DNA of 64,000 nucleotides, from the IMG/VR virus record IMGVR_UViG_3300024344_003081; one strand, 5' to 3'. This document shows, one piece after another, positions 14,722-57,682 of this stretch (the stretch's first letter is position 1; each line of letters starts with the position of its first letter). The DNA is from a virus. Its lineage: Duplodnaviria > Caudoviricetes. The notes below the pieces were generated by a model, which saw only the letters and a program-made list of their open reading frames with translations, ran no database searches and was not told the DNA's origin. Both the position numbers and the translations under genes were made by a program.

Positions 14722-15847
14722 TCTTGATGAGATCAAAAGAAAACCACAATTATTATCAATATTAGAAGAATTGAAACATGAAAAAGATTCAATTTTACTA
14801 TTTGATATGCCCGAAGGATCAAGATTATGGCCATTAGACGAAGAAGAAGACTTTTCTTATATTTTATTTTCAAAAGCACATGAAATTTTACAATATCACA
14901 AATTTGATGTTTGGTATTTGTGTTCTGATGTAAATATTAAGACCAGATATACAAAATGGTGTAAAAAAGTAGGTGTTGAAAAAAAGTTTAATGTATTATA
15001 TTTTCCATTTACTGTTAGATTAGATGTTATTGATTATATCAAACAAGAACACGTTGATTCTCTCGCCAATATTCCTAAGAAAAAAAATTTTATACAATTA
15101 ATTTGTAATCCTGATGTTTCTAGAATAGCAACTGTTAATCGTTATTATAAACATCTAAATTATGAATATTCTTTAGTTCCTCAGTTTCATAATGATCATG
15201 AAAATAATTTTGATATAAAAAATAGAATACTTACAGAAATTGAATTGTCTGATATATGGATTAATGATGTTGATGGAGGTAAAGAGTTAAAAGATTGGGA
15301 AACAATTACTGTAAATAATAAAAAACTTAATAAATATATTTTTAATGCATTTCTTCCTAAAGAAAGTTTTGAATCTTGTTGTGATGTAGTATTAGAAACT
15401 TATTTAGATGGTCCACTTTATTTTACTGAAAAAACATGGAAACAATTTTTGTTTCAAAAGCCTTTTATTATGATAGGCACAAAAGGTATTAATCATTATT
15501 TACAAGATTTAGGATTTGAATTATATGATGAAATTTTTGATTATGATTATGACTTAGAAGATAATAATATAAGAAGATTAGAGGGGTTTTGGACTCAAAT
15601 AGAACGATATTTAGACCTTGATGTTCCTGATTTTGAGAAGAAACTTATTATATTGAAAAAAAAGCTAATACATAATAGAAATACCTACATTAAATGGATA
15701 TCAAATATAGATAACGTATTAAATGATCATCGACCAGAATATGATGAGTTGGCTCATTATTTCTATCTTTATTCTACTTTTTACGAAAAAGAATATTTAC
15801 CAGATAAGGGGTTTAACATAATTAAAAAAATTTGTTTGGGGTGTTAA
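14708..15847 (+). CDS. GT10-like/GT-B-like hypothetical protein, copy 1
   Basis: DVVLET..FTEKTWK..KPFIMIG..LGFELYDEIFDYDYD; paralogs at 25561 and 41731. Confidence 0.5.
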   Translation: MITLNLDEIKRKPQLLSILEELKHEKDSILLFDMPEGSRLWPLDEEEDFSYILFSKAHEILQYHKFDVWYLCSDVNIKTRYTKWCKKVGVEKKFNVLYFPFTVRLDVIDYIKQEHVDSLANIPKKKNFIQLICNPDVSRIATVNRYYKHLNYEYSLVPQFHNDHENNFDIKNRILTEIELSDIWINDVDGGKELKDWETITVNNKKLNKYIFNAFLPKESFESCCDVVLETYLDGPLYFTEKTWKQFLFQKPFIMIGTKGINHYLQDLGFELYDEIFDYDYDLEDNNIRRLEGFWTQIERYLDLDVPDFEKKLIILKKKLIHNRNTYIKWISNIDNVLNDHRPEYDELAHYFYLYSTFYEKEYLPDKGFNIIKKICLGC

Positions 15848-16533
15848 TGGATTATGATTTTACAATAAGTAGTCATTGTAACGCCGCATGTCCTTCTTGT
15901 AAGAGATATGAAAGTCACAATAATCCGATTAATTTATATAATGAACCTTTGCATCCAGGATTAAATCAAATTCATATGGATTTTGATGAATTTAAATATA
16001 TTATTGAAAGAGATATTAATTTATTTAAAAACAAACTTGTAACATTTGAAGGTGAACTTGGGGATCCTATGGTTCATCCACATATAAAATCTTTTATAAA
16101 TTTTAGTACAGGTGTTTTTAAAAAATTAAAAATAGTTACTAATGGTGGAATTAGAAATGCAAAATTTTTTAATGATTTGGGAAATACATATAATAATTTA
16201 GAAATTATGTTTTCTATAGATGGTCTAGAAGATGATTTAAATGGGTTGTATAGAGTAAAAGTAAATACTAAAAAAGCAATTGGTAATATGGTTGCATTTG
16301 CTAAAAGTAAGTATGGAAAATCATGGGGAGTGAGTTGGCAATATCTTATTTTTGAACACAACTGGTTTGAAATACCAGAAGTTTTAGATTTTGCAAAATT
16401 ATACAATATACCTATTGTATTAAAAATAAATACTCGACCTAAATTTAGAATAGAAGATAGATTAATACCTAGTGTTGTTAAACAATATGAAAAAAATAAA
16501 TTTAAATTAAGCAATCTTGTTTTAGCGAATTAA
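15847..16533 (+). CDS. radical SAM protein (core only)
   Basis: CNAACPSC; GELGDP; TNGG; FSIDG. Confidence 0.88.
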   Translation: MDYDFTISSHCNAACPSCKRYESHNNPINLYNEPLHPGLNQIHMDFDEFKYIIERDINLFKNKLVTFEGELGDPMVHPHIKSFINFSTGVFKKLKIVTNGGIRNAKFFNDLGNTYNNLEIMFSIDGLEDDLNGLYRVKVNTKKAIGNMVAFAKSKYGKSWGVSWQYLIFEHNWFEIPEVLDFAKLYNIPIVLKINTRPKFRIEDRLIPSVVKQYEKNKFKLSNLVLAN

Positions 16534-17222
16534 TGTTACCTGCAGAAACTTTTATATACAATTTTGAAATTACATCGTATTGTAATGCTGATTGTCCTAG
16601 TTGTTTTAGAACAATGAATAAAAGTAAATTGCCACTTAGACATTTAAAAGTTGAAGATTTCGAATTTTTAATATTAAACAATATAAATTTTATAAAAAAT
16701 AATCGATACGAAATACAAATTGCAAAATTTTGTGGAGAAGTTGGAGATCCTCTGTTACATCCTAAGATTGATCAATTAATTGGTATAGCTGAAAGTGTGT
16801 TTAATAGAGTTGAAATTTATACAAATGGTGGACTTAGAAATACAACTTGGATAAAAAATCTATTTAGACGATATGGAAAAACTCGTTTTGTGTTTGGTAT
16901 TGATGGATTGTCTGATGAAACAAATCAAATGTATAGAGTTAATGTGAGAACTGATATTGCATTAAAAAATATGATTGAATCTGCAAAATATAGACCTACT
17001 AGATGGGAATATACGATATTTAGTCACAATTATTTAGAATTATTTGATGTGATAATGTTTGCAAAAAAACACGACTTAAAGTTATTATGTAGATTTAATG
17101 GCCGAACTTTTAATAAACTTGATGATGAAAATATAGTTAAGTGTGAAACATTACTTAAAAAACATAATACAGACTATTACATATGCAAAGAAGATGTGAG
17201 AATGAAGAAGAAATTAAAATAA
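16533..17222 (+). CDS. radical SAM protein (core only)
   Basis: CNADCPSC; GEVGDP; TNGG; FGIDG. Confidence 0.88.
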   Translation: MLPAETFIYNFEITSYCNADCPSCFRTMNKSKLPLRHLKVEDFEFLILNNINFIKNNRYEIQIAKFCGEVGDPLLHPKIDQLIGIAESVFNRVEIYTNGGLRNTTWIKNLFRRYGKTRFVFGIDGLSDETNQMYRVNVRTDIALKNMIESAKYRPTRWEYTIFSHNYLELFDVIMFAKKHDLKLLCRFNGRTFNKLDDENIVKCETLLKKHNTDYYICKEDVRMKKKLK

Positions 17223-17488
17223 AATGTGATTTTTATAATTATGAATCTGCTAGTTGGAGTCAATATGAAATAGATTTAGATTTAAATGTATTTCCTTGTT
17301 GTCATTATTATATGGACCACACTTTAACTAAAAAACCTAATAAGCATATTAGTCATATAGATAATAGTCTTAAAACCAATTCTTTAAATAATATTTTTAA
17401 AGAATATGATAAAGTATTAAATGAAAAACTTTGGAAAAATAAAAAAACATGTCCTCCTCTTTGTATGAAAATTTGCCGAAAAAAATAA
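17183..17488 (+). CDS. stand-alone SPASM/Twitch-like Fe-S domain
   Basis: C..EID...VFPCC..C..C...C, matching the C-termini of rSAMs at 49028, 50001, 56615. Confidence 0.65.
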   Translation: MQRRCENEEEIKIKCDFYNYESASWSQYEIDLDLNVFPCCHYYMDHTLTKKPNKHISHIDNSLKTNSLNNIFKEYDKVLNEKLWKNKKTCPPLCMKICRKK

Positions 17489-17808
17489 ATAATAATCAAC
17501 ATAATTTACCTGAAGAATTTGAAGATTTGGTTTATTGTATAGGATGGCATGAACATAAAAAATGGGCAGAAGTTGAAATAGCATCTGATTTTTCTGTATA
17601 TCCTTGTTGTGCTTTACATGCAGAGCATCAATTAAATAAAAGATTCTTAGATAAAAAATTAGATAGTTTTGATAAGGAATGGAATAATTTAAAGAAACAT
17701 AAATTGAAAGATATCTTAAAAATATGGAGAGAACATATTAAACCAGAATTTTGGAAAAAAGAAAAAACATTACCCGAATGCTGTAAAACATTATGCAAGA
17801 TAAAATAA
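17449..17808 (+). CDS. stand-alone SPASM/Twitch-like Fe-S domain
   Basis: C..EIA...VYPCC..CC..LC; start uncertain. Confidence 0.65.
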   Translation: MSSSLYENLPKKINNNQHNLPEEFEDLVYCIGWHEHKKWAEVEIASDFSVYPCCALHAEHQLNKRFLDKKLDSFDKEWNNLKKHKLKDILKIWREHIKPEFWKKEKTLPECCKTLCKIK

Positions 17809-20182: not shown

Positions 20183-20867
20183 AAAAATAGAATACGATAC
20201 TAAAAAATATAATTTTGTTAAAGTTTTTCAAGAATATTTTGAAGAAGATTTAACAAAATTACATAAAAAACTTCAATTTGAACGTGAATTTTCGGAAATG
20301 GCAGGAGGAACAGAAGAGTTTGAAGTAGTATCACAAACTTATACAGATGTTATTAAAACTTTAGCTTTTAATGATTTATGGATTGAATTTGTTGAAAATG
20401 TTATTAAATCATATTTTGATAATAAATCTATTTACATTCAAAAACTTCCTTCTTTTAGAATATTTCCTGCAGGACATTCTGTAAAATATGTTGAAAATAC
20501 AACTGATGGATATAATAAACATTTAGATGCAGAGCCTCCTTATTATCATCCTAAATTTGAGAGCAGTTTTTGGATACCATTGACAGAATGTAATTATTTA
20601 AATGATTTTTATTATCAAGATGAATATGGATCATATCGAAGAGCAGATATACGTATAAATGAATTGCTAATTTTTAGTAGTGATGTGATACATGGAAATA
20701 GTGTACATAATAAATCTTCTCAAACTAGATGTTCTTTGGATTTTAAAGGTTTAGCAGTAGATGATTATGATGAAACTATGTTGAGTGATCAAATGATTTT
20801 AAAAAGAGGCTCACCATTTAAACAAAAAGATTGGTATAGTACAAAACATTATTATATGGAAATGTGA
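20175..20867 (+). CDS. StrG-like / 2OG-Fe(II) cupin oxygenase
   Basis: QKLPSFRI..HLD..YH...SFWIPLT..HGN..N....RCSLDF. Confidence 0.6.
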   Translation: MIEKIEYDTKKYNFVKVFQEYFEEDLTKLHKKLQFEREFSEMAGGTEEFEVVSQTYTDVIKTLAFNDLWIEFVENVIKSYFDNKSIYIQKLPSFRIFPAGHSVKYVENTTDGYNKHLDAEPPYYHPKFESSFWIPLTECNYLNDFYYQDEYGSYRRADIRINELLIFSSDVIHGNSVHNKSSQTRCSLDFKGLAVDDYDETMLSDQMILKRGSPFKQKDWYSTKHYYMEM

Positions 20868-21880
20868 TGGACGTTAATTCTCATAATGATTGGGATTCTC
20901 TTGAAGAAATAATTGTAGGTCGTGCAGATTTTGCACATATTCCTCCAGTGGATTCTTCAATGAAAAATTTCATGTTTGCAAATCTGTCAAATGAAGAAAT
21001 AAAAAAACATGTTGGATCATATAATCAGGATCTTCTTAAAGAAGCAAATGAGGATCTTGATATTTTATCTGAAGTATTGGAAGATTGTGGAGTTGTAGTT
21101 CATAGACCAGAAAGAACACAACATCATCAGCGAATTCAGACTCCAAAATGGAGAACTACTGGTTGGCATAATTATTGTCCCAGAGATATTTTTTTAATTT
21201 TGGGAAATAATATTATCGAAGTTCCTAGTGTTATGAGAAGTCGGGTGTTTGAAACTTGGTCTTATAATACAATTTTACACAAAGCATTTGAAGATGGTGC
21301 AAGATGGTTTTCTGCACCAAAGCAAATTATTAAAGATGAAAGTTTTGATTTTTCAGATTTATCAAAACCAACATTAATGAACAATGAGATTCTTTTTGAT
21401 GCCCCTAATGTAATAAGAATTAATAAAGATTTAATTTTTCAAATAAGTAATAGTGGGAATGAAAAAGGAGCCGAATGGTTAGAAAGAATGTTTCCTGAAT
21501 ATAAAATTCATATTGAACATGATGCATATTCAGGCGCCCATTTTGATAGTACAATAATTCCTTTAAGAGAAGGACTTGTATTATTAAATGGACTAAGATG
21601 TAATCAAGATAATTATCCTAAATTTTTTGATGATTGGGAAAGAATATTTTTTACTGATATTATTTCAACTAATTCTGAAGACTCTGGAATATCAAGCGAT
21701 TCAATTGGATTAAATTTATTAAACATTAATCCCAATTTAGTCATTGTTGATGAAAATCAAAAACCATTAATAAAAATTTTAGAACAATATAAAATAGATA
21801 GTATACCTTTATCTATGAAACATGCAAGAACATTAGGCGGTGGTTTCCACTGTGTAACATTGGATTTAAAGAGAAAATGA
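20867..21880 (+). CDS. amidinotransferase (AGAT/StrB1 family)
   Basis: NSHNDWDSLEEIIVG, CPRD, FDAPN, HFDST, LGGGFHCVT (Asp-His-Cys triad). Confidence 0.9.
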   Translation: MDVNSHNDWDSLEEIIVGRADFAHIPPVDSSMKNFMFANLSNEEIKKHVGSYNQDLLKEANEDLDILSEVLEDCGVVVHRPERTQHHQRIQTPKWRTTGWHNYCPRDIFLILGNNIIEVPSVMRSRVFETWSYNTILHKAFEDGARWFSAPKQIIKDESFDFSDLSKPTLMNNEILFDAPNVIRINKDLIFQISNSGNEKGAEWLERMFPEYKIHIEHDAYSGAHFDSTIIPLREGLVLLNGLRCNQDNYPKFFDDWERIFFTDIISTNSEDSGISSDSIGLNLLNINPNLVIVDENQKPLIKILEQYKIDSIPLSMKHARTLGGGFHCVTLDLKRK

Positions 21881-23658
21881 AACAAGTAGGATTTCTTGAA
21901 CTTTCTCATATTTTCACAAATCAAGTAAAATTACCATATTCTACTGGATGTATTTGGAGCTATTGTAAAACAGATGAAGAAATTTCAAATAATTATTCTT
22001 TTGATATTCATGATTGGTACTATGTACTTGATGGGTCTTTTGATGTTTCATCCACAGCTAGGAAACTCGCTGAATGTGATATTATAGGAGTATCATATTT
22101 TGTATGGAATACTCATACAAGCGATAGAGTTAGTGCAGAAATAAAAAGACTTAATCCCGCTTGTAGAATAATATATGGAGGATTGGGTACCCCTAAGTAT
22201 GGTAGATGTCAAGAATTTTTGAATGATCGACCATATATTGATGCTATTGTACACAATGAAGGAGAATTAGTTTTTGCAAACCTCTTAAAGAATGATGACT
22301 GGTCTAAAGTTAACGGAATTACAACTCATTCTTTTCAAACTCCCCTTGCAAATAGAATAAAAAATATTTCTGAAATGCCTAGTCCATATCTTGATGGGCT
22401 CTTTGATAATTTAGTTGCTACTAAAGATCATGATTATGAATGGGAAAGTTTAATTGAACTTGAACGAGGATGTCCATATACTTGTACTTTTTGTGAAGTT
22501 GGAGATAGACATTGGACTAAAGTTATTAAACAAGATTATGATAAGATGGTTAAAGAAATAAATTGGATTTCAGATCATAAGATTGATTATCTACATTTAA
22601 TCGATAATAATTTTGGAATGTATAAAGAACATAAAATTATATCAGATTTATTGATTGATAAATTAGAAACAAAAGGTTATCCAAATGCATTAAATATTAC
22701 TTGGGCAAAACATAAAAAACCTTATCTTTTTGATATTGCCGAAGATTTGTGGAAAGTGGGTCTGAATAAAAGTGTAACTCTTGCCTTACAGTCCACTAAT
22801 TCTTCTACTCTTAAAGCAGTTGAACGAGCAAATGAAAATACAAATTTGGAACAGGTTATAGCTTATTTAAAAAAGAAAGGAATGCCTGCGTATATTGAGA
22901 CTATTTTAGGATTACCAGAAGAGACTTTAAGTAGTTTTAAAGAAGGATTATATAGATTGATTGATGATATAGGATATCATAATTATATTGGAATTTATAC
23001 TATGGTAGCGTTACCAAATACACCATTTGGTGATCCCGAATATTTAAAAAAATATGGAGTAAAGATAGTTAAAACTGCTCCTTGTTTTTTTCATCATGAA
23101 CATCCTTCAGAAAAACTTATGGAAGATACAAATGATGTTGTTATTGGTTCTAGTGTTATGTCTTATGATGATTATTTAAAAGCATGTGGTTGGAAATGGT
23201 ATATGATATCTGTTCATTTTCTTGGTTGGTTAAGAGTTCTTGCAATAGATTTAAAAAAGAAACATAATATTACTCATAGACAATTTTATGATGATTTATT
23301 TAATTGGTCTATACAAAATTCGTCTACTTTATTATATAAAGAATATTATGTGACAATGAGATTATTAAATAAAGTATTTAAAAAAGAAATTCCTTGGGGA
23401 AGAAAAGTAAAAGGAGCTTCTGACATTTATTGGGAATATGAAGAAGCAACAGGTATTTATATCGCAAAAAACAAAAAAAGATTTTACAATGAAATCGGTG
23501 ATTTTTTGGAGAATACATATAATAGTAGATATCCCGTATTAGTAAAAAAACAATCAGACAAAATGCTTGATCCATTTCTTGTATATGAGGGAGATTTAGA
23601 AAAATATGCAAGAGAATGTTTGTGGTGGGGCAGACGAGCAGAAAGATTTTTTGTATGA
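21877..23658 (+). CDS. cobalamin-dependent radical SAM protein
   Basis: N-terminal B12-binding domain (LPYS, GVSYFVWN, YGG) plus RGCPYTCTFC. Confidence 0.88.
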   Translation: MKQVGFLELSHIFTNQVKLPYSTGCIWSYCKTDEEISNNYSFDIHDWYYVLDGSFDVSSTARKLAECDIIGVSYFVWNTHTSDRVSAEIKRLNPACRIIYGGLGTPKYGRCQEFLNDRPYIDAIVHNEGELVFANLLKNDDWSKVNGITTHSFQTPLANRIKNISEMPSPYLDGLFDNLVATKDHDYEWESLIELERGCPYTCTFCEVGDRHWTKVIKQDYDKMVKEINWISDHKIDYLHLIDNNFGMYKEHKIISDLLIDKLETKGYPNALNITWAKHKKPYLFDIAEDLWKVGLNKSVTLALQSTNSSTLKAVERANENTNLEQVIAYLKKKGMPAYIETILGLPEETLSSFKEGLYRLIDDIGYHNYIGIYTMVALPNTPFGDPEYLKKYGVKIVKTAPCFFHHEHPSEKLMEDTNDVVIGSSVMSYDDYLKACGWKWYMISVHFLGWLRVLAIDLKKKHNITHRQFYDDLFNWSIQNSSTLLYKEYYVTMRLLNKVFKKEIPWGRKVKGASDIYWEYEEATGIYIAKNKKRFYNEIGDFLENTYNSRYPVLVKKQSDKMLDPFLVYEGDLEKYARECLWWGRRAERFFV

Positions 23659-24970: not shown

Positions 24971-24976
24971 AAGTAT

Positions 24977-41246: not shown

Positions 41247-41734
41247 TTTTTGATAAAATTTTACATAAAAATATTTATAATTATGGTATAGATTATGAAT
41301 TTAGAAAAAGAAATAAAGGCGATAGTATAGAATTTTATATTATTGAAGAATGTAGTAATGAAAAAGAATATAAATTTTATGTTTCTTCATATAGACCTTT
41401 GATAAAAAAATCGGGTTTAAAAAATCGAAATGGAGATTCTGATTATGCTTTGTTGTGGACTGATTTTCCAGAAAGAATTGATGATGCATTTGATAAGCAA
41501 ATGCAATGGCATTATAATAGAAATGTGGGTCTTGCTGATGTTGATTATAAAATTTCTTCTTTGATAATAAATCCTCATGGTATATTTTTTTATAGTTTGG
41601 GTAGTAATTTATATGTTCATGATTTAAAAATTTCAAACTATCAATTTTTTAATTCAACAGTATTAGAAAAAAATGTTTATTGGCAAATTGATCCTGTAAA
41701 ATTAAACTTTATACGTAAATATGAGATAATATGA
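41243..41734 (+). CDS. hypothetical protein
   Basis: ATGA coupling. Confidence 0.55.
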   Translation: MIFDKILHKNIYNYGIDYEFRKRNKGDSIEFYIIEECSNEKEYKFYVSSYRPLIKKSGLKNRNGDSDYALLWTDFPERIDDAFDKQMQWHYNRNVGLADVDYKISSLIINPHGIFFYSLGSNLYVHDLKISNYQFFNSTVLEKNVYWQIDPVKLNFIRKYEII

Positions 41735-44630: not shown

Positions 44631-44653
44631 ATTTTTTAAAAATATATTATTTA

Positions 44654-46826: not shown

Positions 46827-47955
46827 TATTGAAGATCAATCAAATCGATATCAAATAATATGGGATCTTGGAAGAAGATGTTCATATGCATGTTCCTATT
46901 GTCCGCCTCATAGAAATAATAAAACATCCTCGTTTGTAAATTATAAAACATTATGTAAGTCTATGGATAATGTTGCAGAATATGCGTTGCTTTATGATAC
47001 ATTTAGAAAAAAACCTGCTAAGAAAAAATTGAGCTTTACTGGTGGTGAACCAACAGTACACCCTGATTTTTTTAGATTTTTAAAATATGTAAAAAAAGAA
47101 TATCCTGATTTTAGTCGAGGATTGACAACTAATGGATGGTTTGGTAATAATATTTTAGATAAAGTTTTATCATTGACTACGGGAGGAACATTATCTTATC
47201 ATTGTGAAGCAACAAAGAAACAAAAACAACAAGTAATATCAAATGCAATATATTTAAGACAAAAATATAAAGTTAATGTGATGTTTCATAAAGATTATTT
47301 TGAAGAATGTATAGATGTATGTGAAAAATTAGAAAAAAATAGTGTAGATTATGTACCAAGAATTATAGGAGATGATAATCCTAACGATAAAAAGTCTATA
47401 ATATTGGGTTATACACATAAGTATAATAAAGATCAAATGAAATGGTTTCGTAACTATTGGAAACAAAGGGGACAAAATGTCTCAGAAAAAGGAAACACTC
47501 AAAAAGGACTGGGAAGACCGTGTTGTGGAGGAAGGTGTTTCAAGGCAGACGGTGTGGATACTTATTTTTTGCCTGACACTAATTTTTTGGGGTGGAATTG
47601 CATGGTTAATTGGTACTTTCTTTTTTTAAATTCTGAATTAGATGCAGTTTATACACATCAAACTTGTGGAGTTAATTTAAATGGTGAAGTTGCTCCTTTA
47701 GGAAAAATATCAGAGTTTGATAAAATCATAGATGACTTAGCAGATAATATGTATCAAAAAAAGGTACCTATGATTACTTGCCCAAAAACTTTTTGTGGAT
47801 GCGGTATGTGCATTACAAAATCTAAAGACTCTATAGATGAAATGTTTAATCGACACGTAATTGATGAGTTAAATTATGAAAAAGTATCTCAAAAAACAAG
47901 TGATTGGAATACAGATTTAACAGTTAAAAAATTATTTGAAAATAATGTGTTATGA
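46819..47955 (+). CDS. radical SAM protein
   Basis: WDLGRRCSYACSYC; FTGGEP; C-terminal Cys cluster. Confidence 0.9.
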   Translation: MYNIEDQSNRYQIIWDLGRRCSYACSYCPPHRNNKTSSFVNYKTLCKSMDNVAEYALLYDTFRKKPAKKKLSFTGGEPTVHPDFFRFLKYVKKEYPDFSRGLTTNGWFGNNILDKVLSLTTGGTLSYHCEATKKQKQQVISNAIYLRQKYKVNVMFHKDYFEECIDVCEKLEKNSVDYVPRIIGDDNPNDKKSIILGYTHKYNKDQMKWFRNYWKQRGQNVSEKGNTQKGLGRPCCGGRCFKADGVDTYFLPDTNFLGWNCMVNWYFLFLNSELDAVYTHQTCGVNLNGEVAPLGKISEFDKIIDDLADNMYQKKVPMITCPKTFCGCGMCITKSKDSIDEMFNRHVIDELNYEKVSQKTSDWNTDLTVKKLFENNVL

Positions 47956-49040
47956 AACATTTTTGCATGGCTCCTTTTGTACACATTCAAAGAAATTCTT
48001 TTGGTGAATTTAATCCTTGTTGTATGTTTAGTGATAGAATTTATTCTGAATATAATTCTATATACGAAGCATTCAATAGTGGAGAGAATAATAATCTTAG
48101 ACAAAGAATGTTAAATGATGAAAAAATAGAAGGATGTAATAAATGTTATAGAGATGAGTCTTTGGGAAAACACAGTTATAGACAACGTTTTAATGAAAGA
48201 TATAAACAAGAATATATTGATAATCCAAAAATAAAAGAATTAGAATTAGCATTAAGTAATAAATGTAATTATAAATGTGTAGACTGTAATACGAAATTTA
48301 GTTCTTCTTGGTATGAAGATGATCTGTTATTAGAAAGAACTCACTATACTTTTAAAGGACGAGATGTAAAAAATACAATTCATGAAGAAGATTTTAAAAT
48401 CATGGATTTGAATGAAATAAAAATTTTAGGGGGCGAGCCATTTTTAGATAAAAGATATATTGATGTTTTTAAAAAAATAGATGCTGAAAATATTAAGTTG
48501 TTTCTTGTTACAAATAATTCTGTTTTCCCTAATAAAGAATGGATAGAACAATTAAAAAGATTTAAACATATTAATTTTAATATTAGTATTGATGGTGTTC
48601 ATGAAGTTGCAGAATTTGTAAGATATGGAACTAAATTTATAAAATTTGAAAAAAATTATAAAAAATGGTTGGATTTAAATTTTCATAATATAGACATAAT
48701 TCCTCATTTTGTTTTTCATTCTTTAAATGTTTTAAACTTTGATCAGACGATAGATTGGTTAATTGATGTTTATGATTCAGATATAGAAACAATATTAAAT
48801 TATATTTCCTATGATTTTTTATCAATGCCTGAAATGTTAAATTGTTCATTTTTAACGGATGAATGTAAAAATATGATTGTTGATAATAGTGTTTATTTTA
48901 AAAATGAATTAGAAAATTTTCTTGAAAGCAATTCATATAATTCGACATATATTGATGAATTGAAAAAATTTGTTTCTTTTTTGAATTTAAGAAGTGAAAT
49001 ACCCAATCAATCTTTTCAAGTTATATCATGTTTAAAATAA
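47952..49040 (+). CDS. radical SAM protein with N-terminal Twitch domain
   Basis: FCMAPF..PCC..C..C; CNYKCVDC; GGEP. Confidence 0.9.
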   Translation: MKHFCMAPFVHIQRNSFGEFNPCCMFSDRIYSEYNSIYEAFNSGENNNLRQRMLNDEKIEGCNKCYRDESLGKHSYRQRFNERYKQEYIDNPKIKELELALSNKCNYKCVDCNTKFSSSWYEDDLLLERTHYTFKGRDVKNTIHEEDFKIMDLNEIKILGGEPFLDKRYIDVFKKIDAENIKLFLVTNNSVFPNKEWIEQLKRFKHINFNISIDGVHEVAEFVRYGTKFIKFEKNYKKWLDLNFHNIDIIPHFVFHSLNVLNFDQTIDWLIDVYDSDIETILNYISYDFLSMPEMLNCSFLTDECKNMIVDNSVYFKNELENFLESNSYNSTYIDELKKFVSFLNLRSEIPNQSFQVISCLK

Positions 49041-50014
49041 ATGTTATAGAAATAGAATTGTCATCTCTTTGTAACGCAAAATGTTCTGCATGTATGCGTA
49101 CTATATTAGATGAACGTGGAAAATATTATTTAAAAGATAATTTGCCTTTGAATGAAATTGAATCGTGGTTTAATGACATAGATTTATCAAATACTAAAAT
49201 AAAAATGTGTGGAGTATTGGGTGATCCAATGATTAATCCGGAATTGCATGATATTGTTTTTTATTTTTTATATGAAAAACATGTAAGAGATATTGAAATG
49301 TCTACGAATGGTGGTACTCGTACACTTGATTTCTGGAAAGAATTGGGTATGTTATCAAAAAATTCGAATAAAAGATTTTATGTTCATTGGGCTATTGATG
49401 GAGTTACAAAAAATGACTATAGAGAAAACGTTGTACTCGATAGAGTATGGAATAATATTAATGCTTACCATTCTACTGGCGGCCATAGTATCTGGCAGTA
49501 TATCATTTTTGATTATAATGAAGACGAAGTTGAAATGGCCAGAGAAAAAGCAAAAGAAAATGGAATGAAATTTGCAACTCGTAAAAGTTGGAGAAATAAT
49601 TCAGATTTTGCTAAAGTTAAATCTAGGGCCGCTAAAGAAATTGATGCTGAAAAGTATGAAGAAGTTGAAAAACGAGCATATGAGAAATCATATGAAGATG
49701 CAAAAATTGTATGTAGACATAAAGTAAAAGGAGAAATATACATTGGTGCAAATAGAAGATTGTGGCCTTGTTGTCATTTATATGATGAAGATGTTGCTCA
49801 AAAAAATAATTCTATGAAACATTTATTTGAGTCTGTGGGACACAATTTTAATGATTTAAATAAACATAGTATAAAAGATATTTTATCTGGTGAGTGGTAT
49901 AAAAAGACTTTAGAAGATAGTTGGAATAAATTTCATCCTATGCATTTGCCTAGATGTTATTTGACATGTGGAGATGAAGGAAAACGAGCGGTTATTAAAA
50001 ATGTGGAAAACTAA
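49028..50014 (+). CDS. radical SAM protein with C-terminal Twitch/SPASM domain
   Basis: CNAKCSAC; GDP; WPCC..CYLTC. Confidence 0.9.
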   Translation: MFKINVIEIELSSLCNAKCSACMRTILDERGKYYLKDNLPLNEIESWFNDIDLSNTKIKMCGVLGDPMINPELHDIVFYFLYEKHVRDIEMSTNGGTRTLDFWKELGMLSKNSNKRFYVHWAIDGVTKNDYRENVVLDRVWNNINAYHSTGGHSIWQYIIFDYNEDEVEMAREKAKENGMKFATRKSWRNNSDFAKVKSRAAKEIDAEKYEEVEKRAYEKSYEDAKIVCRHKVKGEIYIGANRRLWPCCHLYDEDVAQKNNSMKHLFESVGHNFNDLNKHSIKDILSGEWYKKTLEDSWNKFHPMHLPRCYLTCGDEGKRAVIKNVEN

Positions 50015-50930
50015 AACAGTAGAATGGATCGATGTTGAATTAACATCATTTTGTAATATAGCATGTCCTGGTTGTTTGAGACAAGAAAAAAGAAAACAAG
50101 TAGATCATATTTTAGATAAAGATATGATACAATTTTCTGATTTGCAAAAATGGATCAAAAAAGAAGATTTCCCTAATTTAAAATTGCTTAATTTTTGTGG
50201 ATCTGTAGATGAGCCCACAACACATCCTGAATTATTAGATATAGTAGAATATTTTTTAACATTTACAGAGATAAATATTGCATCCAATGGATCGACTAAG
50301 ACAAAAGATTTTTGGAAAAAATTAGGAGAATATGGTGTATCTGTATTTTTTGGTATTGATGGTATAGATCAGAAATCGTTAGAGAAATATAGAATAGGTT
50401 CTAGTTTTAAAAAAATACAGGAAAATTATAGAGCATTTATTAAAGCGGGGGGTAATGCTACTTGGCAATTTATAGTATTTGAACATAATGAACATCTTTT
50501 GGAAGATGCAAAAGCTCTTTCAGAAAAAGAAGGATTTACAAATTTTAGAACAATATTTTCTCATAGAAAAGGAAGTGGAGAGATTGAAAAAAAGACAGTT
50601 GAAGAACAAGAGATATATTGTAAGTATGGACATCAAAAAAGACTTTTTATAAATCATACAGGAGCTTTGATACCATGTTGTTATTTAAACTCTGAAGCAC
50701 TTGAATTACATGCTAATGAAACTATTAAAACTAAATTTGGGACAAAATATATGGAATTAGATGGAGTGTTATCAAATAATCTTAAATATAATACAGTATC
50801 GGAAGTATTGAATGGAGAATTATTTAAATATATTATTGAATCTTGGAATGATGATCCAGTTGAAAAGTGTTGGCAAACATGTAAACAGAAAAAAAGAGAT
50901 ATTTTTATAGATGAGAAAGTAACATGCTGA
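50001..50930 (+). CDS. radical SAM protein with C-terminal Twitch/SPASM domain
   Basis: CNIACPGC; IPCC..CWQTC. Confidence 0.9.
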   Translation: MWKTKTVEWIDVELTSFCNIACPGCLRQEKRKQVDHILDKDMIQFSDLQKWIKKEDFPNLKLLNFCGSVDEPTTHPELLDIVEYFLTFTEINIASNGSTKTKDFWKKLGEYGVSVFFGIDGIDQKSLEKYRIGSSFKKIQENYRAFIKAGGNATWQFIVFEHNEHLLEDAKALSEKEGFTNFRTIFSHRKGSGEIEKKTVEEQEIYCKYGHQKRLFINHTGALIPCCYLNSEALELHANETIKTKFGTKYMELDGVLSNNLKYNTVSEVLNGELFKYIIESWNDDPVEKCWQTCKQKKRDIFIDEKVTC

Positions 50931-52270
50931 CTTGTTTTTACGCCCTTGGTGGAATTAATTATAAAAATGGAGTTATAACAACTTGTCCAAGACAAGCAAA
51001 TCAATTAGTATTTGCTCATGAAACAATATTGCCCTCAGAAATATTTAATCATAAAAATTTTAAAGAACTTAGAAAATCATTATATCAAAATAAATGGCCT
51101 AGTGGATGTGATACATGTGAGAATATGGAACAGGTAGGAGCAAAGTCTATGAGAAAAGATTATGTTTTAAATTCTGATAATTTTTTTCATAAGCCACAAA
51201 AAGACGATTATTCGGACGGAGATCCACAAAAAAATAAATTAAAAGATGAAAAAACAGAAATAAGATTATATGATTGTTATAATCCTATAACACATGAAGT
51301 AAATAGAAAAGGATTGCGACATGTTGAGTTTAGATTTAGTACGGCTTGTAATTTTTCTTGTTTACATTGTTCAAAAGTTTATTCCTCGGGATGGACTAAA
51401 AAATTACGTAATTATGAACCCGATCAAGAAGTTATACTAAATGATTTAAGACAATTGTTAGGAACAGAACATAGACATGGCCCAAATGATAGAAATGAAA
51501 TGTCTTTATCTATTGAAGAATCTTTAAAAATTGTAGAAGACCTGAATGAAAATTTTCCATTATTACAATATGTGGATTTTGCAGGAGGAGAATTACTATA
51601 TCAAAAGCAATTTTTTCCCACATTGAAAAAATTAGCAGATCATCCTAATGCAAAAAATATAAAAATATCTTTTCATACAAATTTTAATGCTGATTTTGAT
51701 GTTGCACTTTTGTCTAAACATCTGGAATGTTTTGGCTCTTCAGCAATAATAATATCTGTTGATGCGGGTAAAACATTTTATTCTTATTTTAGAAATGGGG
51801 GTGAATGGGACAAATTGAAAAATAATATTCAAGAATTTAAAAAAATAAATGATTTTACTTGGGTTGATATGAGTTGTACAACTTCAATTTATCAAATGTT
51901 GGATATATATGATGTTTTTGATTCGTTTTATGATTTGAATTTAAACTTTGATGCATCTATAGTTCAAACTCCACAATATTTGGATCCGTCATTAATACTT
52001 TATGATTTTTATGATGAGACTATGAAAGATATTGAAAAAACATATGAGTTAATTGAAAAAAGACAAAAAAATCCTGAAGGAAAAAGTGATTATTCAAAAT
52101 ATTGGTTTAATTATATTGTGGATTATGTAAAGCAAACGAAAATAAGTTATAATAATTTTAATAGATTTTTAATATATCGAAAAAAATCAGATGAGATTTG
52201 GAATCAAGATTTTAATGATTATTTTGAAAATTATCAAATCGAAAATAATGAATTAGTGAGAGTTAAGTGA
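50924..52270 (+). CDS. radical SAM protein with N-terminal Twitch domain
   Basis: CFY..TCP..CDTC; CNFSCLHC; GGE. Confidence 0.88.
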   Translation: MLTCFYALGGINYKNGVITTCPRQANQLVFAHETILPSEIFNHKNFKELRKSLYQNKWPSGCDTCENMEQVGAKSMRKDYVLNSDNFFHKPQKDDYSDGDPQKNKLKDEKTEIRLYDCYNPITHEVNRKGLRHVEFRFSTACNFSCLHCSKVYSSGWTKKLRNYEPDQEVILNDLRQLLGTEHRHGPNDRNEMSLSIEESLKIVEDLNENFPLLQYVDFAGGELLYQKQFFPTLKKLADHPNAKNIKISFHTNFNADFDVALLSKHLECFGSSAIIISVDAGKTFYSYFRNGGEWDKLKNNIQEFKKINDFTWVDMSCTTSIYQMLDIYDVFDSFYDLNLNFDASIVQTPQYLDPSLILYDFYDETMKDIEKTYELIEKRQKNPEGKSDYSKYWFNYIVDYVKQTKISYNNFNRFLIYRKKSDEIWNQDFNDYFENYQIENNELVRVK

Positions 52271-53334
52271 AATTAAGTGAATATGATTTTACCAAGATAC
52301 CTTGGAATAAAATTGAACGAGTTGGGACTTGGAAGATGCTGGAGTCTGACTTATTTACAGTTTCATGGTTGTTAGGGAGATTTTGTAATTATAGATGTTC
52401 ATATTGCTGGCCATATGCAAGAAGTAATACTAAAGATCATCGTCCTGTGAAATTATGTCTCAATACAATTGATGAAATTAAACGACAAGCCAGAGAAAGA
52501 AATTTTAATTCCTTTCATTTTAGTCTATCTGGAGGTGAGCCCACTTTTCATCCAGCATATCTTGATATACTTGAACATCTTGCAGATGATGTAGTATACA
52601 CTAATTATTCATCTGTCCATATGACTTCAAATTGTTCTCGACCTATGAAGTGGTTTGAACGATATGTTGAGTCAGCAAAGAAATTTTCAAGAGCATCTAT
52701 TACTGCATCATTTCATCGTGAATATATTACAAAAAATAAACTTAATGATTTTGCAGATAAACTTGATTTTTGTCAACGTAATGGTGTAAGAGTAACAATT
52801 AATTCTGTAATGGTACCAGAAAAATTTGATGAAATATATAAAGACTTATTGTATTTTTATGAACGAGGCATAAACGTAACACTTAAACCACAAAGTGATC
52901 CTACTGCATCATTTGTTGTTGATGGATATTCTGAAGAACAGATGCAAGTATTGCATAATGGTATGCCTCAGATTACAAACATGGAAGTTAAATCAAAAAA
53001 ACTTCAAAACATTCGTCAAGAATTTGAAATTGTTATGAATGATGATGAAGGAAAAGAGTGGTATCTTGATCAAGCAGAAAGATTTAATGCATTTAATTTT
53101 AATAATTTTAAAGGATGGACTTGCTCTACTGGTTATCGTAGTTGCATTATTCGTGAACCTGATGGAAGCATTAAACGATCTTATTCTTGTGGAGATGCTC
53201 CTTTAGGAAATATAGAAACAGGATTTAAATTATTTGATTCGCCTGTGATATGTACTACAAATGCGTGTGTAAGTTCTGCTGATAGTAAAATTCCTAAAAA
53301 GAAATCTAATTGTACCTTACCATTATGGAAATAG
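52267..53334 (+). CDS. radical SAM protein
   Basis: WLLGRFCNYRCSYC; SGGEP; C-terminal Cys cluster. Confidence 0.9.
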   Translation: MKLSEYDFTKIPWNKIERVGTWKMLESDLFTVSWLLGRFCNYRCSYCWPYARSNTKDHRPVKLCLNTIDEIKRQARERNFNSFHFSLSGGEPTFHPAYLDILEHLADDVVYTNYSSVHMTSNCSRPMKWFERYVESAKKFSRASITASFHREYITKNKLNDFADKLDFCQRNGVRVTINSVMVPEKFDEIYKDLLYFYERGINVTLKPQSDPTASFVVDGYSEEQMQVLHNGMPQITNMEVKSKKLQNIRQEFEIVMNDDEGKEWYLDQAERFNAFNFNNFKGWTCSTGYRSCIIREPDGSIKRSYSCGDAPLGNIETGFKLFDSPVICTTNACVSSADSKIPKKKSNCTLPLWK

Positions 53335-53534
53335 ATAATATTATAAATGATTATTCTTTGAGAGAATTACAAATTATTTCTTCAAGAATATTATCAGAAC
53401 ATGAAGCTACAAATAATTTTATAAAACAATTTAAAGCAGATCATGATAGTCATCAATTTTATAAAAACGTTATTAAATGGTATATTGAAAAATATAAACA
53501 TTTTCCTGAATTGAAAAAATATGATTCCTTCTAA
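53325..53534 (+). CDS. small hypothetical protein
   Basis: coupled ORF between rSAM genes. Confidence 0.5.
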   Translation: MEIDNIINDYSLRELQIISSRILSEHEATNNFIKQFKADHDSHQFYKNVIKWYIEKYKHFPELKKYDSF

Positions 53535-55050
53535 AGATAATACTTTTTGTTTTTATCCTTTTTATGCCATGGTTTTTAAACTATGGAAAAAGAATAGTAA
53601 TGAATTAAGAGCAGTTGCACCATGTTGTATGATGCATGACACTAAAGATATAACAGGAATTAAAATAGATGTTTCATATACTGCTACAAATCCTGTGGTT
53701 ATTACAAGTATAAATCATGAATTAATTGATGATGATAAAATAGAAATTTATGAAGTAAATGGAGATGGAGTTGATGTGGGGCCATATACAGTAACAGTAC
53801 TTTCTTCAGATACATTTTCTATTCCTGAAGATGCTACAAAGGGCAATGTTGGTAAATTGAATTATCATATGAGAGAACCGAATTCAATTTTAACTAGAAG
53901 AGATTTAAAAGGATTGTCTCCTCATGATATTTTTCATCATAAAAAATTTGAAGAATTAAGAAAAAACTTACTTAATAATGTGCGGGATTCTCGTTGTTCC
54001 ACATGTTGGAATCAGGAAGATTTGGGAATAATGTCTCATAGAATGTATACACGATGGCAATTTCCAGAAAAATTTAAAACAAGTTTAAAAGAAATAGACA
54101 TATCAATATCTAATAAGTGTAATTTAGCATGTAGAATGTGTAATACAGGATCTTCACATCAACTAAATGAAGATGTGAATAAATTAAGAAAAAATAATAA
54201 ATTGCTTTTATTTGAAGAAGTTTCAGATAATGGTTTAGGATCACTTAATTTACCATTGGATGTTAAAAATAATCATTTAATACAATGGATATATCACAAT
54301 ACTGATAAAATAAAAATTTTAAAAGCATCTGGAGGAGAGCCACTATATGATAGAAATATATTAAATTTGTTAAGAAAATATGTGAAAGATGGTAATAGTA
54401 AATCAACAGAATTACAATTCCATACAAATGCAATGTTAATAACAGATAAAATTATTAAACTCATGGACGAATTTAAATTACAAAGACATTCATTTAGTAT
54501 AGATGGAGTTGATAAGACTTATAATTACATAAGACATAAAGCAAATTTTTCGATTTTAGAAAAAAATATTAAAAATTGGTTTAACAAATCTAATAACATT
54601 TATGCAGTAAATATTAATTTAGTATTGTCTGCGTTAAATATAGGTAATGTTGTTGAGTTTTTGGAATGGACAGCTTTGATGTTTCATGATAAGATTAGAT
54701 GTAATGTTTTTATTTCTGAAGTGCGGCCTCATGGTAGAGGACTCGATATTGCAAATTTACCAATCTCTTATTTAGAAAAAATACGAAAAGATATTATAGA
54801 ATATAGAGATGGTTTTGAAACATTTAGAACTAAAATATATAATTATATGCATAAAGGAAATTTTTTCCATTATGAAATTGATAAATTATTATCGTTAATT
54901 GATCATGCAATAACAAATAATGTATGTGATATTTTTCGTTTATATACTGAAATAACATTATTAGATGAAACAAGAAATCAAAGTTATAAAAATTTTTTAG
55001 ATTCTTCTTTAGTTTCTATTTTAGAAAACTATGAATCGCAAGAAAAATAA
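53521..55050 (+). CDS. radical SAM protein with N-terminal Twitch domain and inserted FCCH-like beta domain
   Basis: FCFYPF..PCC [insert] C..C; CNLACRMC; GGEP. Confidence 0.88.
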   Translation: MIPSKDNTFCFYPFYAMVFKLWKKNSNELRAVAPCCMMHDTKDITGIKIDVSYTATNPVVITSINHELIDDDKIEIYEVNGDGVDVGPYTVTVLSSDTFSIPEDATKGNVGKLNYHMREPNSILTRRDLKGLSPHDIFHHKKFEELRKNLLNNVRDSRCSTCWNQEDLGIMSHRMYTRWQFPEKFKTSLKEIDISISNKCNLACRMCNTGSSHQLNEDVNKLRKNNKLLLFEEVSDNGLGSLNLPLDVKNNHLIQWIYHNTDKIKILKASGGEPLYDRNILNLLRKYVKDGNSKSTELQFHTNAMLITDKIIKLMDEFKLQRHSFSIDGVDKTYNYIRHKANFSILEKNIKNWFNKSNNIYAVNINLVLSALNIGNVVEFLEWTALMFHDKIRCNVFISEVRPHGRGLDIANLPISYLEKIRKDIIEYRDGFETFRTKIYNYMHKGNFFHYEIDKLLSLIDHAITNNVCDIFRLYTEITLLDETRNQSYKNFLDSSLVSILENYESQEK

Positions 55051-55810: not shown

Positions 55811-56663
55811 TTATTGGGAAACAGGTTATTTTAAAAAAAAGAATCTTAGATTTGTATTTCCAGTAAATCAACCTGGACTGGGTGATAGATTTATCATGGC
55901 CTCAAATATTCTTTTTACTATGAAAGAAGTTGAACACGAATCTTGTATTGTTGATATTTTTCTTAAAAACACAAAGACGGTGCATAAAAGCCAGTATTTA
56001 AATCTTATAGATTTTTATGATATTATAGATTTTTTTCATTTTAAAAGACCAGATGAAAGTGAATCATCAATAATTACAAATATAATAGATGAAGCTCCTC
56101 CTACATATAAAGAGATATTGGCTTCAAAACGAAAAAATATTACAGGTGATGTTGCTTGTCATGATTTTAATTCTAGATATAATGAATATGTTATAAGTAA
56201 TTATTTTCTTTATAACGAAGCACGATATTGGCCTATAAATTATGATAAAACTGCAAAAAAGCAACTTATAACATTTATGTTTTATGTAGATGATTCAGTA
56301 CCCGAACATAAATTTATCACAACAGAGGAAGAAAAAGAATTTAATAAGGTAAAAGATTATTATGGACATTATTTTCATCGACATGAATATTATTTTGTTC
56401 GTTTAGAAGATTTTAATTATAAAAGAAATATAGAATTATTATCTAAAAGTTTGTTTTTAATAGCATCAGAAGGAATGTGGACCCATTTATCTAGAGCAAT
56501 GAAAGTTAATACCATAGCATATTCTAGGGATATTACTTTTATTGAGGAATTTAATAAACAGGGACATTTTTGTTCTGGATTTTTTGAAAAATGTTTAATT
56601 GAATTAGAAAAAAAATGTATAGAATTAAAAAAGAAGAGCAACTTTATAAGTTTGAAGAGATAA
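55794..56663 (+). CDS. GT-B (GT9-like) putative glycosyltransferase, tandem copy B
   Basis: near-duplicate of copy A. Confidence 0.5.
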   Translation: MNHRSSYWETGYFKKKNLRFVFPVNQPGLGDRFIMASNILFTMKEVEHESCIVDIFLKNTKTVHKSQYLNLIDFYDIIDFFHFKRPDESESSIITNIIDEAPPTYKEILASKRKNITGDVACHDFNSRYNEYVISNYFLYNEARYWPINYDKTAKKQLITFMFYVDDSVPEHKFITTEEEKEFNKVKDYYGHYFHRHEYYFVRLEDFNYKRNIELLSKSLFLIASEGMWTHLSRAMKVNTIAYSRDITFIEEFNKQGHFCSGFFEKCLIELEKKCIELKKKSNFISLKR

Positions 56664-57682
56664 AACATATACATTTTGAACCTACGCAAAGATGTCAGGC
56701 GGCGTGTCCTATGTGTGATAGAACTAATAATCCACATATAAAAAATGCTGAACTTTCTATAGAACAATTTAAACAAATTGTAAATGCTAATTTAGCAAAA
56801 CAATTAAATAGTTTTCTTATGTGTGGTAATCATGGAGATCCTATGATTGCAAAGGATACCCTTGAAATGTTTGACTGGTTACGCTATAATAATAATGAAC
56901 TATATCTTCATATGACTACAAATGCTGGAGGACGATCTGATGATTGGTGGAAAAGACTTGCGGAAATTTTTGGTGATTATGGAAAAGTATCTTTTTCAGT
57001 AGATGGTTTAGAAGACACAAATCATTTATATCGAGTAAATGTAGATTGGAATCGTGTTGAAAATTCAATGGATGTTTTTACTCAAGCAGGAGGAAAAGGT
57101 TATTGGGTATTTTTAATATTTGAACATAATGAACATCAAGTAGAAGAAGCAGAACGAATGGCTAAATTATTTGGACTTGAATTTGTGAGAAAAAAGTCTG
57201 GAAGATGGGTGCAAAGTTATAAAAATAAGAAAATTGACAAAAAGATAACCACTAAGGGGAATGAGATTAAGCCACCAGCTAATCCAGAGAATCAGAATAA
57301 GAGTGTTAACAGTTATGATAAATTGATTAAAAGTCATGGTTCCTTTCAAGAGTATTTAGATAAAACAAAAATAAAATGTAAGTCAATAGATACTAAAGAA
57401 ATTTTTATTTCAGCAGAAGGTCTTGTGACTCCTTGTTGTTGGACTGCTGGAAAATTATATAAAGTATATGAAAAAATAGGACAAAATCAAATATGGTCTT
57501 ATATAGATGATATTAAAAATATTAATGCTTTATATAAACCTTTAAATGAAATTATTGAAGGAGATTTTTTTAAAAAGATTAAACAATCTTGGAATTTGCC
57601 TTCTTGTTCACAAGGAAAATCAAAAGTTTGTGCAGAGAAGTGTGGTACTGATTTTAACGCATTTGCAGATCAATGGAAATAA
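56615..57682 (+). CDS. radical SAM protein with C-terminal Twitch/SPASM domain
   Basis: CQAACPMC; GNHGDP; TPCC..CAEKC. Confidence 0.9.
   Translation: MYRIKKEEQLYKFEEIKHIHFEPTQRCQAACPMCDRTNNPHIKNAELSIEQFKQIVNANLAKQLNSFLMCGNHGDPMIAKDTLEMFDWLRYNNNELYLHMTTNAGGRSDDWWKRLAEIFGDYGKVSFSVDGLEDTNHLYRVNVDWNRVENSMDVFTQAGGKGYWVFLIFEHNEHQVEEAERMAKLFGLEFVRKKSGRWVQSYKNKKIDKKITTKGNEIKPPANPENQNKSVNSYDKLIKSHGSFQEYLDKTKIKCKSIDTKEIFISAEGLVTPCCWTAGKLYKVYEKIGQNQIWSYIDDIKNINALYKPLNEIIEGDFFKKIKQSWNLPSCSQGKSKVCAEKCGTDFNAFADQWK

Follow-up and report, generated by a model that had tools for sequence, protein, structure and literature searches.

BtrN, the butirosin 2-deoxy-scyllo-inosamine dehydrogenase (PDB 4M7S/4M7T), is the founding twitch enzyme among radical S-adenosylmethionine (SAM) enzymes. 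In marine phages, the T4-like genome TARA_ERS488813_N000010 has 12 radical SAM genes (Nishimura et al., 2017; PMC5332604), and radical SAM cassettes occur in the hypervariable host-recognition islands of pelagimyophages, where glycosyltransferases are also found (Zaragoza-Solas et al., 2020; PMC7029224). The stretch analyzed here is IMG/VR virus record IMGVR_UViG_3300024344_003081 (Duplodnaviria; Caudoviricetes), a window of 64,000 nucleotides in which 14 radical SAM genes lie between 15.8 and 57.7 kb. Radical SAM-rich T4-like marine phages are already in print, and neither the existence of the island nor the family name is new. What is new here are split core/twitch pairs, the coexistence of three domain layouts, and a four-gene set common to a culturable predator. 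The 14 enzymes represent at least five old subfamilies; 13 belong to the SPASM/twitch branch, and one is of the B12 type. A single two-module enzyme, consisting of a core and one twitch, is present in three coexisting layouts: twitch-core (group A), core-twitch (group B), and split.

Radical SAM genes and their domain layouts

Radical SAM proteins in the window were assigned with PF04055 (gathering score 29.5 bits), NF033640 (curated cut-off 170 bits), and PF13186 (cut-off 21.5 bits). Genes are named by their start position, and the sizeable open reading frames (ORFs) from 9 to 63 kb are all on the plus strand and close-set, with a GC content of 25-33%. The sequence-only reading of this DNA had listed 14 genes with CxxxCxxC, and exactly 14 of the approximately 55 plus-strand ORFs in the radical SAM span carry C-x3-C-x2-C. 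PF04055 matches all 14, and 13 are above the gathering score; gene 15832 scores 20.1 bits, below gathering, yet it matches group B cores at E 1e-12 to 1e-18. Three start codons differ from those given earlier (46729 vs. 46819, 49968 vs. 50001, and 15832 vs. 15847). Reductive SAM cleavage on a [4Fe-4S] cluster is the activity predicted from sequence for all 14 proteins.

Five genes encode enzymes with an N-terminal twitch (N-twitch). These are 32033..33223 (NF033640 201.6 bits; C6, C25/26, C72, and C75), 44654..46084, which is the most conserved member (397.5 bits; C15, C33/34, C97, and C100), 47952..49040 (235.6 bits; C5, C23/24, C62, and C65), 50924..52270 (198.7 bits; four N-terminal Cys, C4, C21, C62, and C65), and 53521..55050 (208.8 bits; C10, C35/36, C159, and C162). 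An N-terminal C..(P)CC..CxxC motif had been claimed for all five; it is present in four, while 50924 has a single Cys and no CC. The twitch of 53521 has an insert of about 95 aa (residues approximately 37-130) between its CC pair and CxxC that other aligned members do not have. All five are above the NF033640 cut-off, and therefore the permuted layout is that of a named family (N_Twi_rSAM). The other nine radical SAM genes either match NF033640 over only a portion of its length, at 26.8-47.2 bits, or lack a match, and are non-members.

The N-terminal modules had been read as SPASM/twitch-type domains in an architecture permuted relative to BtrN and anSME, and this is supported by a PF13186 match on 44654, by NF033640 in all five proteins, and by BtrN as the best PDB match. 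Protein 44654 has 3,360 homologues. Its C15, C33, C97, C100, C153, C157, and C160 are invariant (the four module Cys in 33 sequences). The module motif, C-x12-G-x4-C(C)...CxxC, is the first half of the SPASM signature, and PF13186 scores 24.1 bits on residues 15-100, above its cut-off. A profile of the module searched against the whole PDB found the twitch region of BtrN first (E 0.034). Failure of the modules to model as SPASM or twitch domains had been named beforehand as grounds for rejection, and a fold search recovered the BtrN twitch and the ChlB SPASM region, although weakly. Folded alone, the module had a predicted local distance difference test (pLDDT) score of 82, its residues 21-31 forming a hairpin region and residues 79-105 helices. 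Among 48,161 PDB chains it had only two matches at Z ≥ 2, both weak: BtrN residues 163-248 (Z 3.6, 83 aa, root-mean-square deviation [rmsd] 3.9) and, at Z 2.0, the ChlB SPASM region. With Foldseek, the top two matches of the lone module were both BtrN (E 0.44). These scores are singly weak, and all converge on the same element. Alignment of the N-terminal module with the group B C-terminal module by hhalign gave a probability of 45% (E 2e-4), so direct homology between the two is suggested by their sequences; the twitch identity of the module comes from the Pfam SPASM and BtrN matches more than from this alignment. The N-terminal twitch is predicted to bind an auxiliary cluster.

The full-length AlphaFold2 model of 44654 has a pLDDT of 85.9 and a predicted template modeling score of 0.86. 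Its core (residues 142-438) aligns to solved radical SAM structures at Z 10.7-11.8 (rmsd 3.8-4.5 Å over 195-233 residues). A module profile search of 1.84 billion proteins found 5,462 clusters (50% identity), of which 1,644 had E ≤ 1e-10. As such, the permuted architecture is no novelty: it is already a curated NCBIfam family with at least this smaller number of clusters. Database relatives that are 400-470 aa long have the start of the module among about their first 30 residues. Some database proteins of about 800-1,400 aa (P0125, P0129, P0134, P0139, P0143, and others) have two to four copies of the N-twitch module, and by sequence they resemble N-twitch radical SAM enzymes, two or more, joined in tandem.

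Three further genes have the twitch after the core: 49028..50014 (C229, C248/249, C310, and C314; PF13186 17.6 bits, below cut-off), 49968..50930 (C218, C237/238, C301, and C305; PF13186 25.0 bits, above cut-off), and 56615..57682 (PF13186 18.3 bits, below cut-off). The same three had been grouped by a C-terminal Cys module, and the Cys positions show that the grouping was right. A short protein, 37416..38234, also has a C-terminal SPASM/twitch module (PF04055 43.9 bits, PF13186 33.9 bits), and within it residues 186-256 match positions 4-72 of NF033640, the twitch part of that model. It had been called a canonical SPASM enzyme, for which the PF13186 score speaks; however, it is not a full one, because it has only 272 aa and six C-terminal Cys. 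In general, the modules of the window hold four to six Cys, which is enough for one cluster, and therefore they resemble twitch rather than full SPASM domains (seven Cys).

The split layout is found in four consecutive ORFs. Two encode radical SAM cores of the group B type without a twitch, 15832..16533 (CNAACPSC at residue 16) and 16533..17222, which are 36% identical and mutual best matches. They are followed by two free-standing twitch ORFs, 17183..17488 (101 aa, 7 Cys; hhalign match to the group B C-terminal modules) and 17449..17808 (119 aa, 6 Cys; BLASTP match to the 49028 C-terminus, 34% over 83 aa, E 3e-6). The two cores had been described as core-only genes, which holds for the genes themselves but overlooks the twitch ORFs that follow. 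The cores are 27-33% identical to 49028, 49968, and 56615 (27-29% for 15832 alone). Alignment of 17183 and 17449 with the group B C-terminal modules by hhalign gave a probability of 96.3% (E 1.6e-9, 91 columns) and spans their full length with all Cys matched. The core-core-twitch-twitch block is kept at 55-81% identity in seven other viral contigs (L131-L136 and L141), and 17449 has orthologues at 72-81% identity in 11 viral contigs. In four further viral contigs the order is reversed, the twitch ORF immediately preceding the core ORF and joined to it by a TAATG stop/start overlap, and in L011, L012, and L023 a 65% orthologue of 15832 lies directly 3' of a 17449-like ORF. Twitch-then-core order in these sister phages could be an intermediate of the permutation.

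A complex model of 15832 with 17449 scored 0.85 (best control 0.01), which is not a demonstration of binding and may reflect likeness to solved fused enzymes, since fused core-twitch enzymes have been solved. Among solved complexes, 58 of 80 attained that mark, as did 2 of 110 mismatched pairs. Contacts agree between model runs to 67% or more, and the partner has a pLDDT of 64 or higher. In the modelled contact, a twitch hairpin (residues 40-48 of 17449) is paired with the strand preceding CxxxCxxC (residues 5-14 of 15832). The two proteins are proposed to be partners. Free-standing twitch proteins would allow a core to be assayed with and without its partner, and the role of the auxiliary cluster is therefore directly testable.

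Group C consists of 46729..47955, which has a Cys-rich C-terminus (9 Cys after residue 260) and phage orthologues at 75-89% identity, and 52267..53334, in whose family C286, C308, C329, and C334 are invariant. They share the W.LGR.C.Y.CSYC motif noticed earlier, but their C-terminal Cys clusters, whose kind is uncertain, had been missed. The C-terminal module of 52267 was rejected as a twitch (hhalign probability below 1% against the group A, group B, and free-standing twitch modules). Assignment of both proteins to prokaryotic viperin (NF038283) was also rejected, with scores of 38.6 and 44.0 bits on the core only against a cut-off of 180. Between 52267 and 53521, and overlapping both, lies a 69-aa ORF (53325-53534) that is also called in public assemblies. 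It has no Cys and many charged residues and is unlike a peptide precursor.

The remaining gene, 21877..23658, encodes a B12-binding-type radical SAM protein (NF033712 E 1.9e-63; PF04055 50.5 bits; PF02310 19.5 bits), which from its sequence is probably a C-methyltransferase. It had been called B12-dependent. Likeness to the class was retained, but the KedN5 subfamily score (214.7 vs. 700 bits) and the Pfam B12-binding score (19.5 vs. 32.1) fall short, so the protein was rejected as a KedN5 subfamily member and is a relative of the class only.

Age and distribution in phages and Bdellovibrionota

Many related genes stand next to each other on one strand in this window, and the paralogous expansion offered earlier as their origin would, taken literally, be a recent one within the genome, with one permuted enzyme diversifying on the spot. 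The mutual best match between 15832 and 16533 is in keeping with such an origin. So is the adjacent pair 55031-55810 and 55794-56663, which are not radical SAM genes and are 62% identical, indicating that duplication does occur in the island; this is the only clearly recent duplication there. However, pairwise identity among the 14 radical SAM proteins is 19-36%, while 12 of them have orthologues at 48-93% identity in other phage contigs. In a tree of 143 N-twitch proteins (unrooted, with many long branches), the five from the window fall in five separate supported clades, so local expansion would need five separate origins for these genes alone. Whole cassettes are also shared in differing combinations among 45 viral contigs. 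We therefore abandoned this explanation as very improbable.

Islands of this type are no exception among related phages. Many IMG/VR contigs show synteny over the block 44654-46074-46729-47952-49028-49968-50924-52267, and single 21-kb loci carry up to 16 radical SAM-like ORFs. Related phages of 167, 306, 177, and 328 kb have about 7, 9, 10, and 14 NF033640 copies above cut-off, respectively, and 14 control genomes have none. Among cultured phages, a tblastn search with 44654 gave four weak matches (21-26% identity) and no close relative. The five best "genome" matches are marine contigs (L046-L050) from metagenome-assembled genomes labeled Chloroflexota, Acidimicrobiaceae, Verrucomicrobiales, Rickettsiales, and Gammaproteobacteria. 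They carry the phage cassette at 55-91% identity with low GC and phage-like gene order, and they are probably phage contigs mis-binned into bacterial genomes.

The window itself has four tRNA genes (Gly-TCC, Tyr-GTA, Asp-GTC, and Asn-GTT) at 1222-5946 among short ORFs (ARAGORN 4 of 4, Rfam 3 of 4). Clusters of tRNA genes of this kind are typical of T4-like phages. After the first 9 kb come endolysin-like, glycosyltransferase, RNase H, and PD-(D/E)XK exonuclease genes, all by PHROG family matches, and the RNase H is about 48% identical to its counterparts in Methylophilales phage Melnitz and marine cyanomyophages. The tRNAs, the PHROG endolysin and exonuclease matches, and the RNase H kinship therefore identify an uncultured marine T4-like myophage. 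Its island is about 45 kb long, lies on one strand behind the RNase H and exonuclease genes, and is built from mobile gene cassettes. Identical proteins with the same neighbors are present on contigs of three metagenome samples, and the radical SAM cassette DNA is present in 20 sequencing runs from 6 named studies. Because it was found in independent samples and runs, the island is real DNA of a widespread phage rather than an assembly artefact. No RNA dataset is among the sequencing runs listed as containing cassette DNA.

Cellular relatives are found in Bdellovibrionota, with about 60 loci in Bdellovibrionales and Bacteriovoracaceae that include one cultured isolate and complete chromosomes. 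Orthologues of 44654 in these bacteria are about 50% identical, and beside them are orthologues of 52267 (54-62%) and 56615 (36-45%; 43 cellular loci). The trio is adjoined in 29 Bdellovibrionota loci by orthologues (27-33%) of 58717..59541, a conserved partner that is not a radical SAM protein and has the motifs GGWxG, DID, and NTSCEH. The 58717 family has no PDB profile, Pfam, NCBIfam, or PHROG match; it is possibly a class I methyltransferase-like protein, an Atlas lead only. In the N-twitch tree, cellular sequences are mixed among those of phages, which forces a minimum of 13 label changes. Given the lack of a root and the many long branches, we claim no direction of transfer between phages and Bdellovibrionota.

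In Bdellovibrio sp. HCB2-146, whose 44654 orthologue is 53% identical, the orthologue set lies amid GT2 glycosyltransferase genes and an acetyltransferase gene. A 1,959-aa Peptidase_S74 protein (L126, 17278-21377) adjoins this radical SAM/GT2 cluster; Peptidase_S74 is a self-cleaving chaperone domain of phage tail fibres and spikes. In other Bdellovibrionota loci, a GT2 fusion protein, PP-loop ATPases, short-chain dehydrogenases/reductases, and carbamoyltransferases recur. The trio in a cultured Bdellovibrio isolate is a genetically tractable system, unlike the uncultured marine phages.

Neighboring genes and the proposed tailoring of glycans

The sugar-gene neighbors and the GT2-rich setting in Bdellovibrionota favor glycan tailoring, and we consider it reasonably likely that the 14 enzymes act on sugar residues of a glycan. 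Each core would bind a [4Fe-4S] cluster on CxxxCxxC and cleave SAM to the 5'-deoxyadenosyl radical, which would abstract a hydrogen atom from the substrate. The twitch module would hold a second [4Fe-4S] cluster on its four Cys, which would conduct an electron away from the substrate radical or to it, the role proposed for the BtrN cluster. As suggested earlier, it is plausible that the enzymes differ from one another in site or substrate. Sugar residues could thereby be oxidised, epimerised, deoxygenated, or alkylated (C-C or C-methyl chemistry), and the target glycan may be on the phage's own fibres or on the surface of the infected cell.

A number of neighboring genes have matches to sugar-handling families. 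Upstream of the island are a GT4-like glycosyltransferase (9555..10559; phrog_2170 E 1e-34, weak NCBIfam GT4 families) and a sugar-1-phosphate nucleotidyltransferase (13069..13779; PF00483 match on its L129 counterpart; AglF/RmlA-like in NCBIfam, E 1e-18 to 1e-20). Further along are a 195-aa piece of a DegT/PseC/LegC-type sugar aminotransferase (24977..25564; PF01041 70.5 bits, positions 166-252 of 360; PseC/LegC best in NCBIfam), a NodU-type carbamoyltransferase (27697..29061; PF16861 179 bits, PF02543 97 bits, NodU E 6.7e-39, N-domain match partial), a CMP-sugar-type cytidylyltransferase (38231..38902; PF02348 57.6 bits; PseF best, 55.8 bits full length, cut-off 205.7), and a HisC/CobD-like pyridoxal phosphate enzyme (38853..39845; PF00155 83 bits; hisC E 8.7e-50, below cut-off). 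Two genes are amidinotransferase-like: 20864..21880, and 42986..43978, which has a weak PF02274 match to the amidinotransferase fold and lies directly upstream of the radical SAM cassette. They are 26% identical over 366 aa (E 3e-23), both terminate in a GG(G/A)xHC motif, and 42986 has orthologues at 58-79% identity beside orthologues of 44654. Protein 46074..46826 has a QueC-like C-terminal part of the PP-loop ATPase family (PF06508 27.2 bits, residues 189-248); its gene is syntenic with 44654 in 17 viral loci, and related copies are present in Bdellovibrionota loci. Gene 57673..58395 is a glycosyltransferase candidate on weak leads (phrog_1962 E 6e-5; Atlas GT8 cluster 0.95, rank 85) that adjoins 44654 or 56615 orthologues in many phage loci. 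The island also has a 202-aa AMP-binding piece (31437-32045; profile positions 168-333 of 384), several 2-oxoglutarate-Fe(II) oxygenases, a Trp-halogenase, and a nitroreductase.

Several observations weigh against glycan tailoring. Within the island proper, no glycosyltransferase is above a curated threshold, and 57673 is a lead only. The DegT, AMP-binding, and carbamoyltransferase genes cover partial profiles, with the same calls in independent assemblies, and such genes may be split, shortened, or decaying. About 25 island ORFs are without any family assignment, and a small-molecule pathway would accommodate the halogenase, nitroreductase, and AMP-binding genes equally well. The modelled match of the N-terminal module to BtrN is weak in absolute terms, and in the searchable literature no paper names NF033640 or gives any member an activity. 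Neither did the literature have anything on "twitch domain-containing radical SAM" proteins in phages or on radical SAM enzymes with Bdellovibrio glycans. Finally, SPASM/twitch enzymes more often act on peptides, as is well established (Grell, Goldman, and Drennan, 2015, cited in PMC5332604).

That last point bears on a competing explanation, in which the enzymes would modify a protein or peptide in the manner of the maturases of RiPPs (peptides made by the ribosome and modified after translation), for example by cross-linking or oxidizing a fibre or virion protein, with the sugar genes as unrelated cargo. The whole 44654 model in Foldseek gives the same impression, with the peptide maturases SkfB and CteB as its best matches and ChlB, SuiB, and anSME also in the lead (TM-scores 0.3-0.44), and the large Peptidase_S74 protein lies beside the HCB2-146 cluster. 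However, Pfam and NCBIfam scans of the 14 proteins found no PqqD/RRE-type domain, and the cassette is without a short Cys-, Ser-, or Gly-rich ORF, its sole unassigned small gene (53325-53534) being the one that lacks Cys. No common N-terminal tag is seen among the island ORFs, and the genes that travel with the cassette in phages and Bdellovibrionota are of glycosyltransferase, PP-loop, carbamoyltransferase, and amidinotransferase types. Peptide modification is thus unlikely, though it deserves to be kept in view. Somewhat less probable still is that the island makes a diffusible aminocyclitol/aminoglycoside-like or halogenated metabolite, on whose free intermediate the twitch enzymes would serve as dehydrogenases or epimerases of the BtrN kind. 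Of solved relatives, the one nearest to the twitch module is BtrN, from the butirosin pathway, and two amidinotransferase-like genes, two aminotransferases, a carbamoyltransferase, a Trp-halogenase, an AMP-binding piece, a nitroreductase, and the KedN5-like B12 enzyme would all fit such a pathway. Cyanophage S-SCSM2R was reported to have an AHBA_syn-type aminotransferase, an inosamine amidinotransferase, and a radical SAM gene, which were interpreted as "antibiotic synthesis genes" (PMC12801897). Against this, the halogenase, AMP-binding, and nitroreductase genes belong to the variable cargo and are seldom syntenic with the cassette in other phages, and the AMP-binding gene spans its family profile only in part. 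The conserved partners in cellular genomes are glycosyltransferases, and the window showed no gene for an exporter, a carrier protein, or self-resistance.

Modification of nucleotides or phage DNA, by 7-deazapurine-like hypermodification or viperin-like chemistry, was the least probable of the explanations weighed, with very little chance of being correct. Phage DNA hypermodification pathways are common (PMC13458397; 10.1101/2023.04.13.536721). The QueC-like part of 46074, the weak best matches of 46729 and 52267 to prokaryotic viperin models, and the viperin-like structures among the best core matches point the same way. However, the viperin scores are far under the cut-off, the QueC match spans only about 60 residues, and no scan of the window found a DpdA/TGT transglycosylase, QueD, or QueE family. 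The same gene set lies amid GT2 genes in Bdellovibrionota.

The NF033640 family is large, occurs almost entirely in big aquatic phages and in predators of the Bdellovibrio type, and reaches 14 or more copies per phage genome; its expansion to this extent in sugar-gene islands suggests an undescribed class of radical carbohydrate chemistry. The more ambitious proposal joins two parts. Several stages of domain permutation would be preserved in this island and those of sister phages (fused core-twitch, separate core and twitch genes in either order, and fused twitch-core), the N-twitch enzymes having arisen by fission, reordering, and re-fusion. A radical glycan-editing toolkit would belong alike to large marine phages and Bdellovibrio-like bacteria, both predators of Gram-negative cells, and would diversify the sugars of attachment fibres or of the prey surface by reactions new to glycobiology. 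Taken together, we regard this as a tentative idea that is probably wrong in some part.

Other island genes form small families. Five diverged paralogues (17793-18599, 18553-19455, 19448-20182, 26796-27704, and 33175-33918) start with (I/L/V)FGDS(F/Y) (LGCSY in 33175) and end with (F)IY(E/D). The opening motif is similar to block I of GDSL/SGNH hydrolases, many of which act as sugar O-acetyl esterases or transferases; no Pfam or PHROG match was found for any of the five. Three paralogues of about 380-430 aa (14708-15847, 25561-26799, and 41731-43011) are 23-34% identical and have no family, and their relatives are in other phage loci and a few cellular loci. A GT10 assignment for these three was rejected because the Atlas match (0.79) is at chance level.

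Comparison with known systems

Among described families, the five N-twitch proteins are closest to NF033640, with a four-Cys twitch followed by a CxxxCxxC core and a near-full match to the model. NF033640 is an annotation model only, however, and the C-terminal-twitch and split forms beside the five fall outside it. BtrN is similar in having a single site for an auxiliary cluster, predicted in the island proteins, that has four Cys and ends in CxxC, and its substrate is sugar-like. It differs in that its twitch is C-terminal, identity is about 20% with weak scores, and it is a single enzyme of an antibiotic pathway and not part of an array. The solved enzymes anSME (4K36-39), CteB (5WGG), SkfB (6EFN), BlsE (7VOB), DesII (8HZV), and viperin share the catalytic core, which aligns to that of 44654. 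In these enzymes the auxiliary domain comes after the core, and the island enzymes are without a peptide-recognition domain in our scans. Reports on TARA_ERS488813_N000010 (PMC5332604) and on the pelagimyophage islands (PMC7029224) count or mention radical SAM genes only, without domain order, split forms, subfamilies, or a link to Bdellovibrionota. These systems are like the present one in kind of phage, in the hypervariable island, and in gene counts; related IMG/VR genomes have about 7 to 14 N-twitch copies each.

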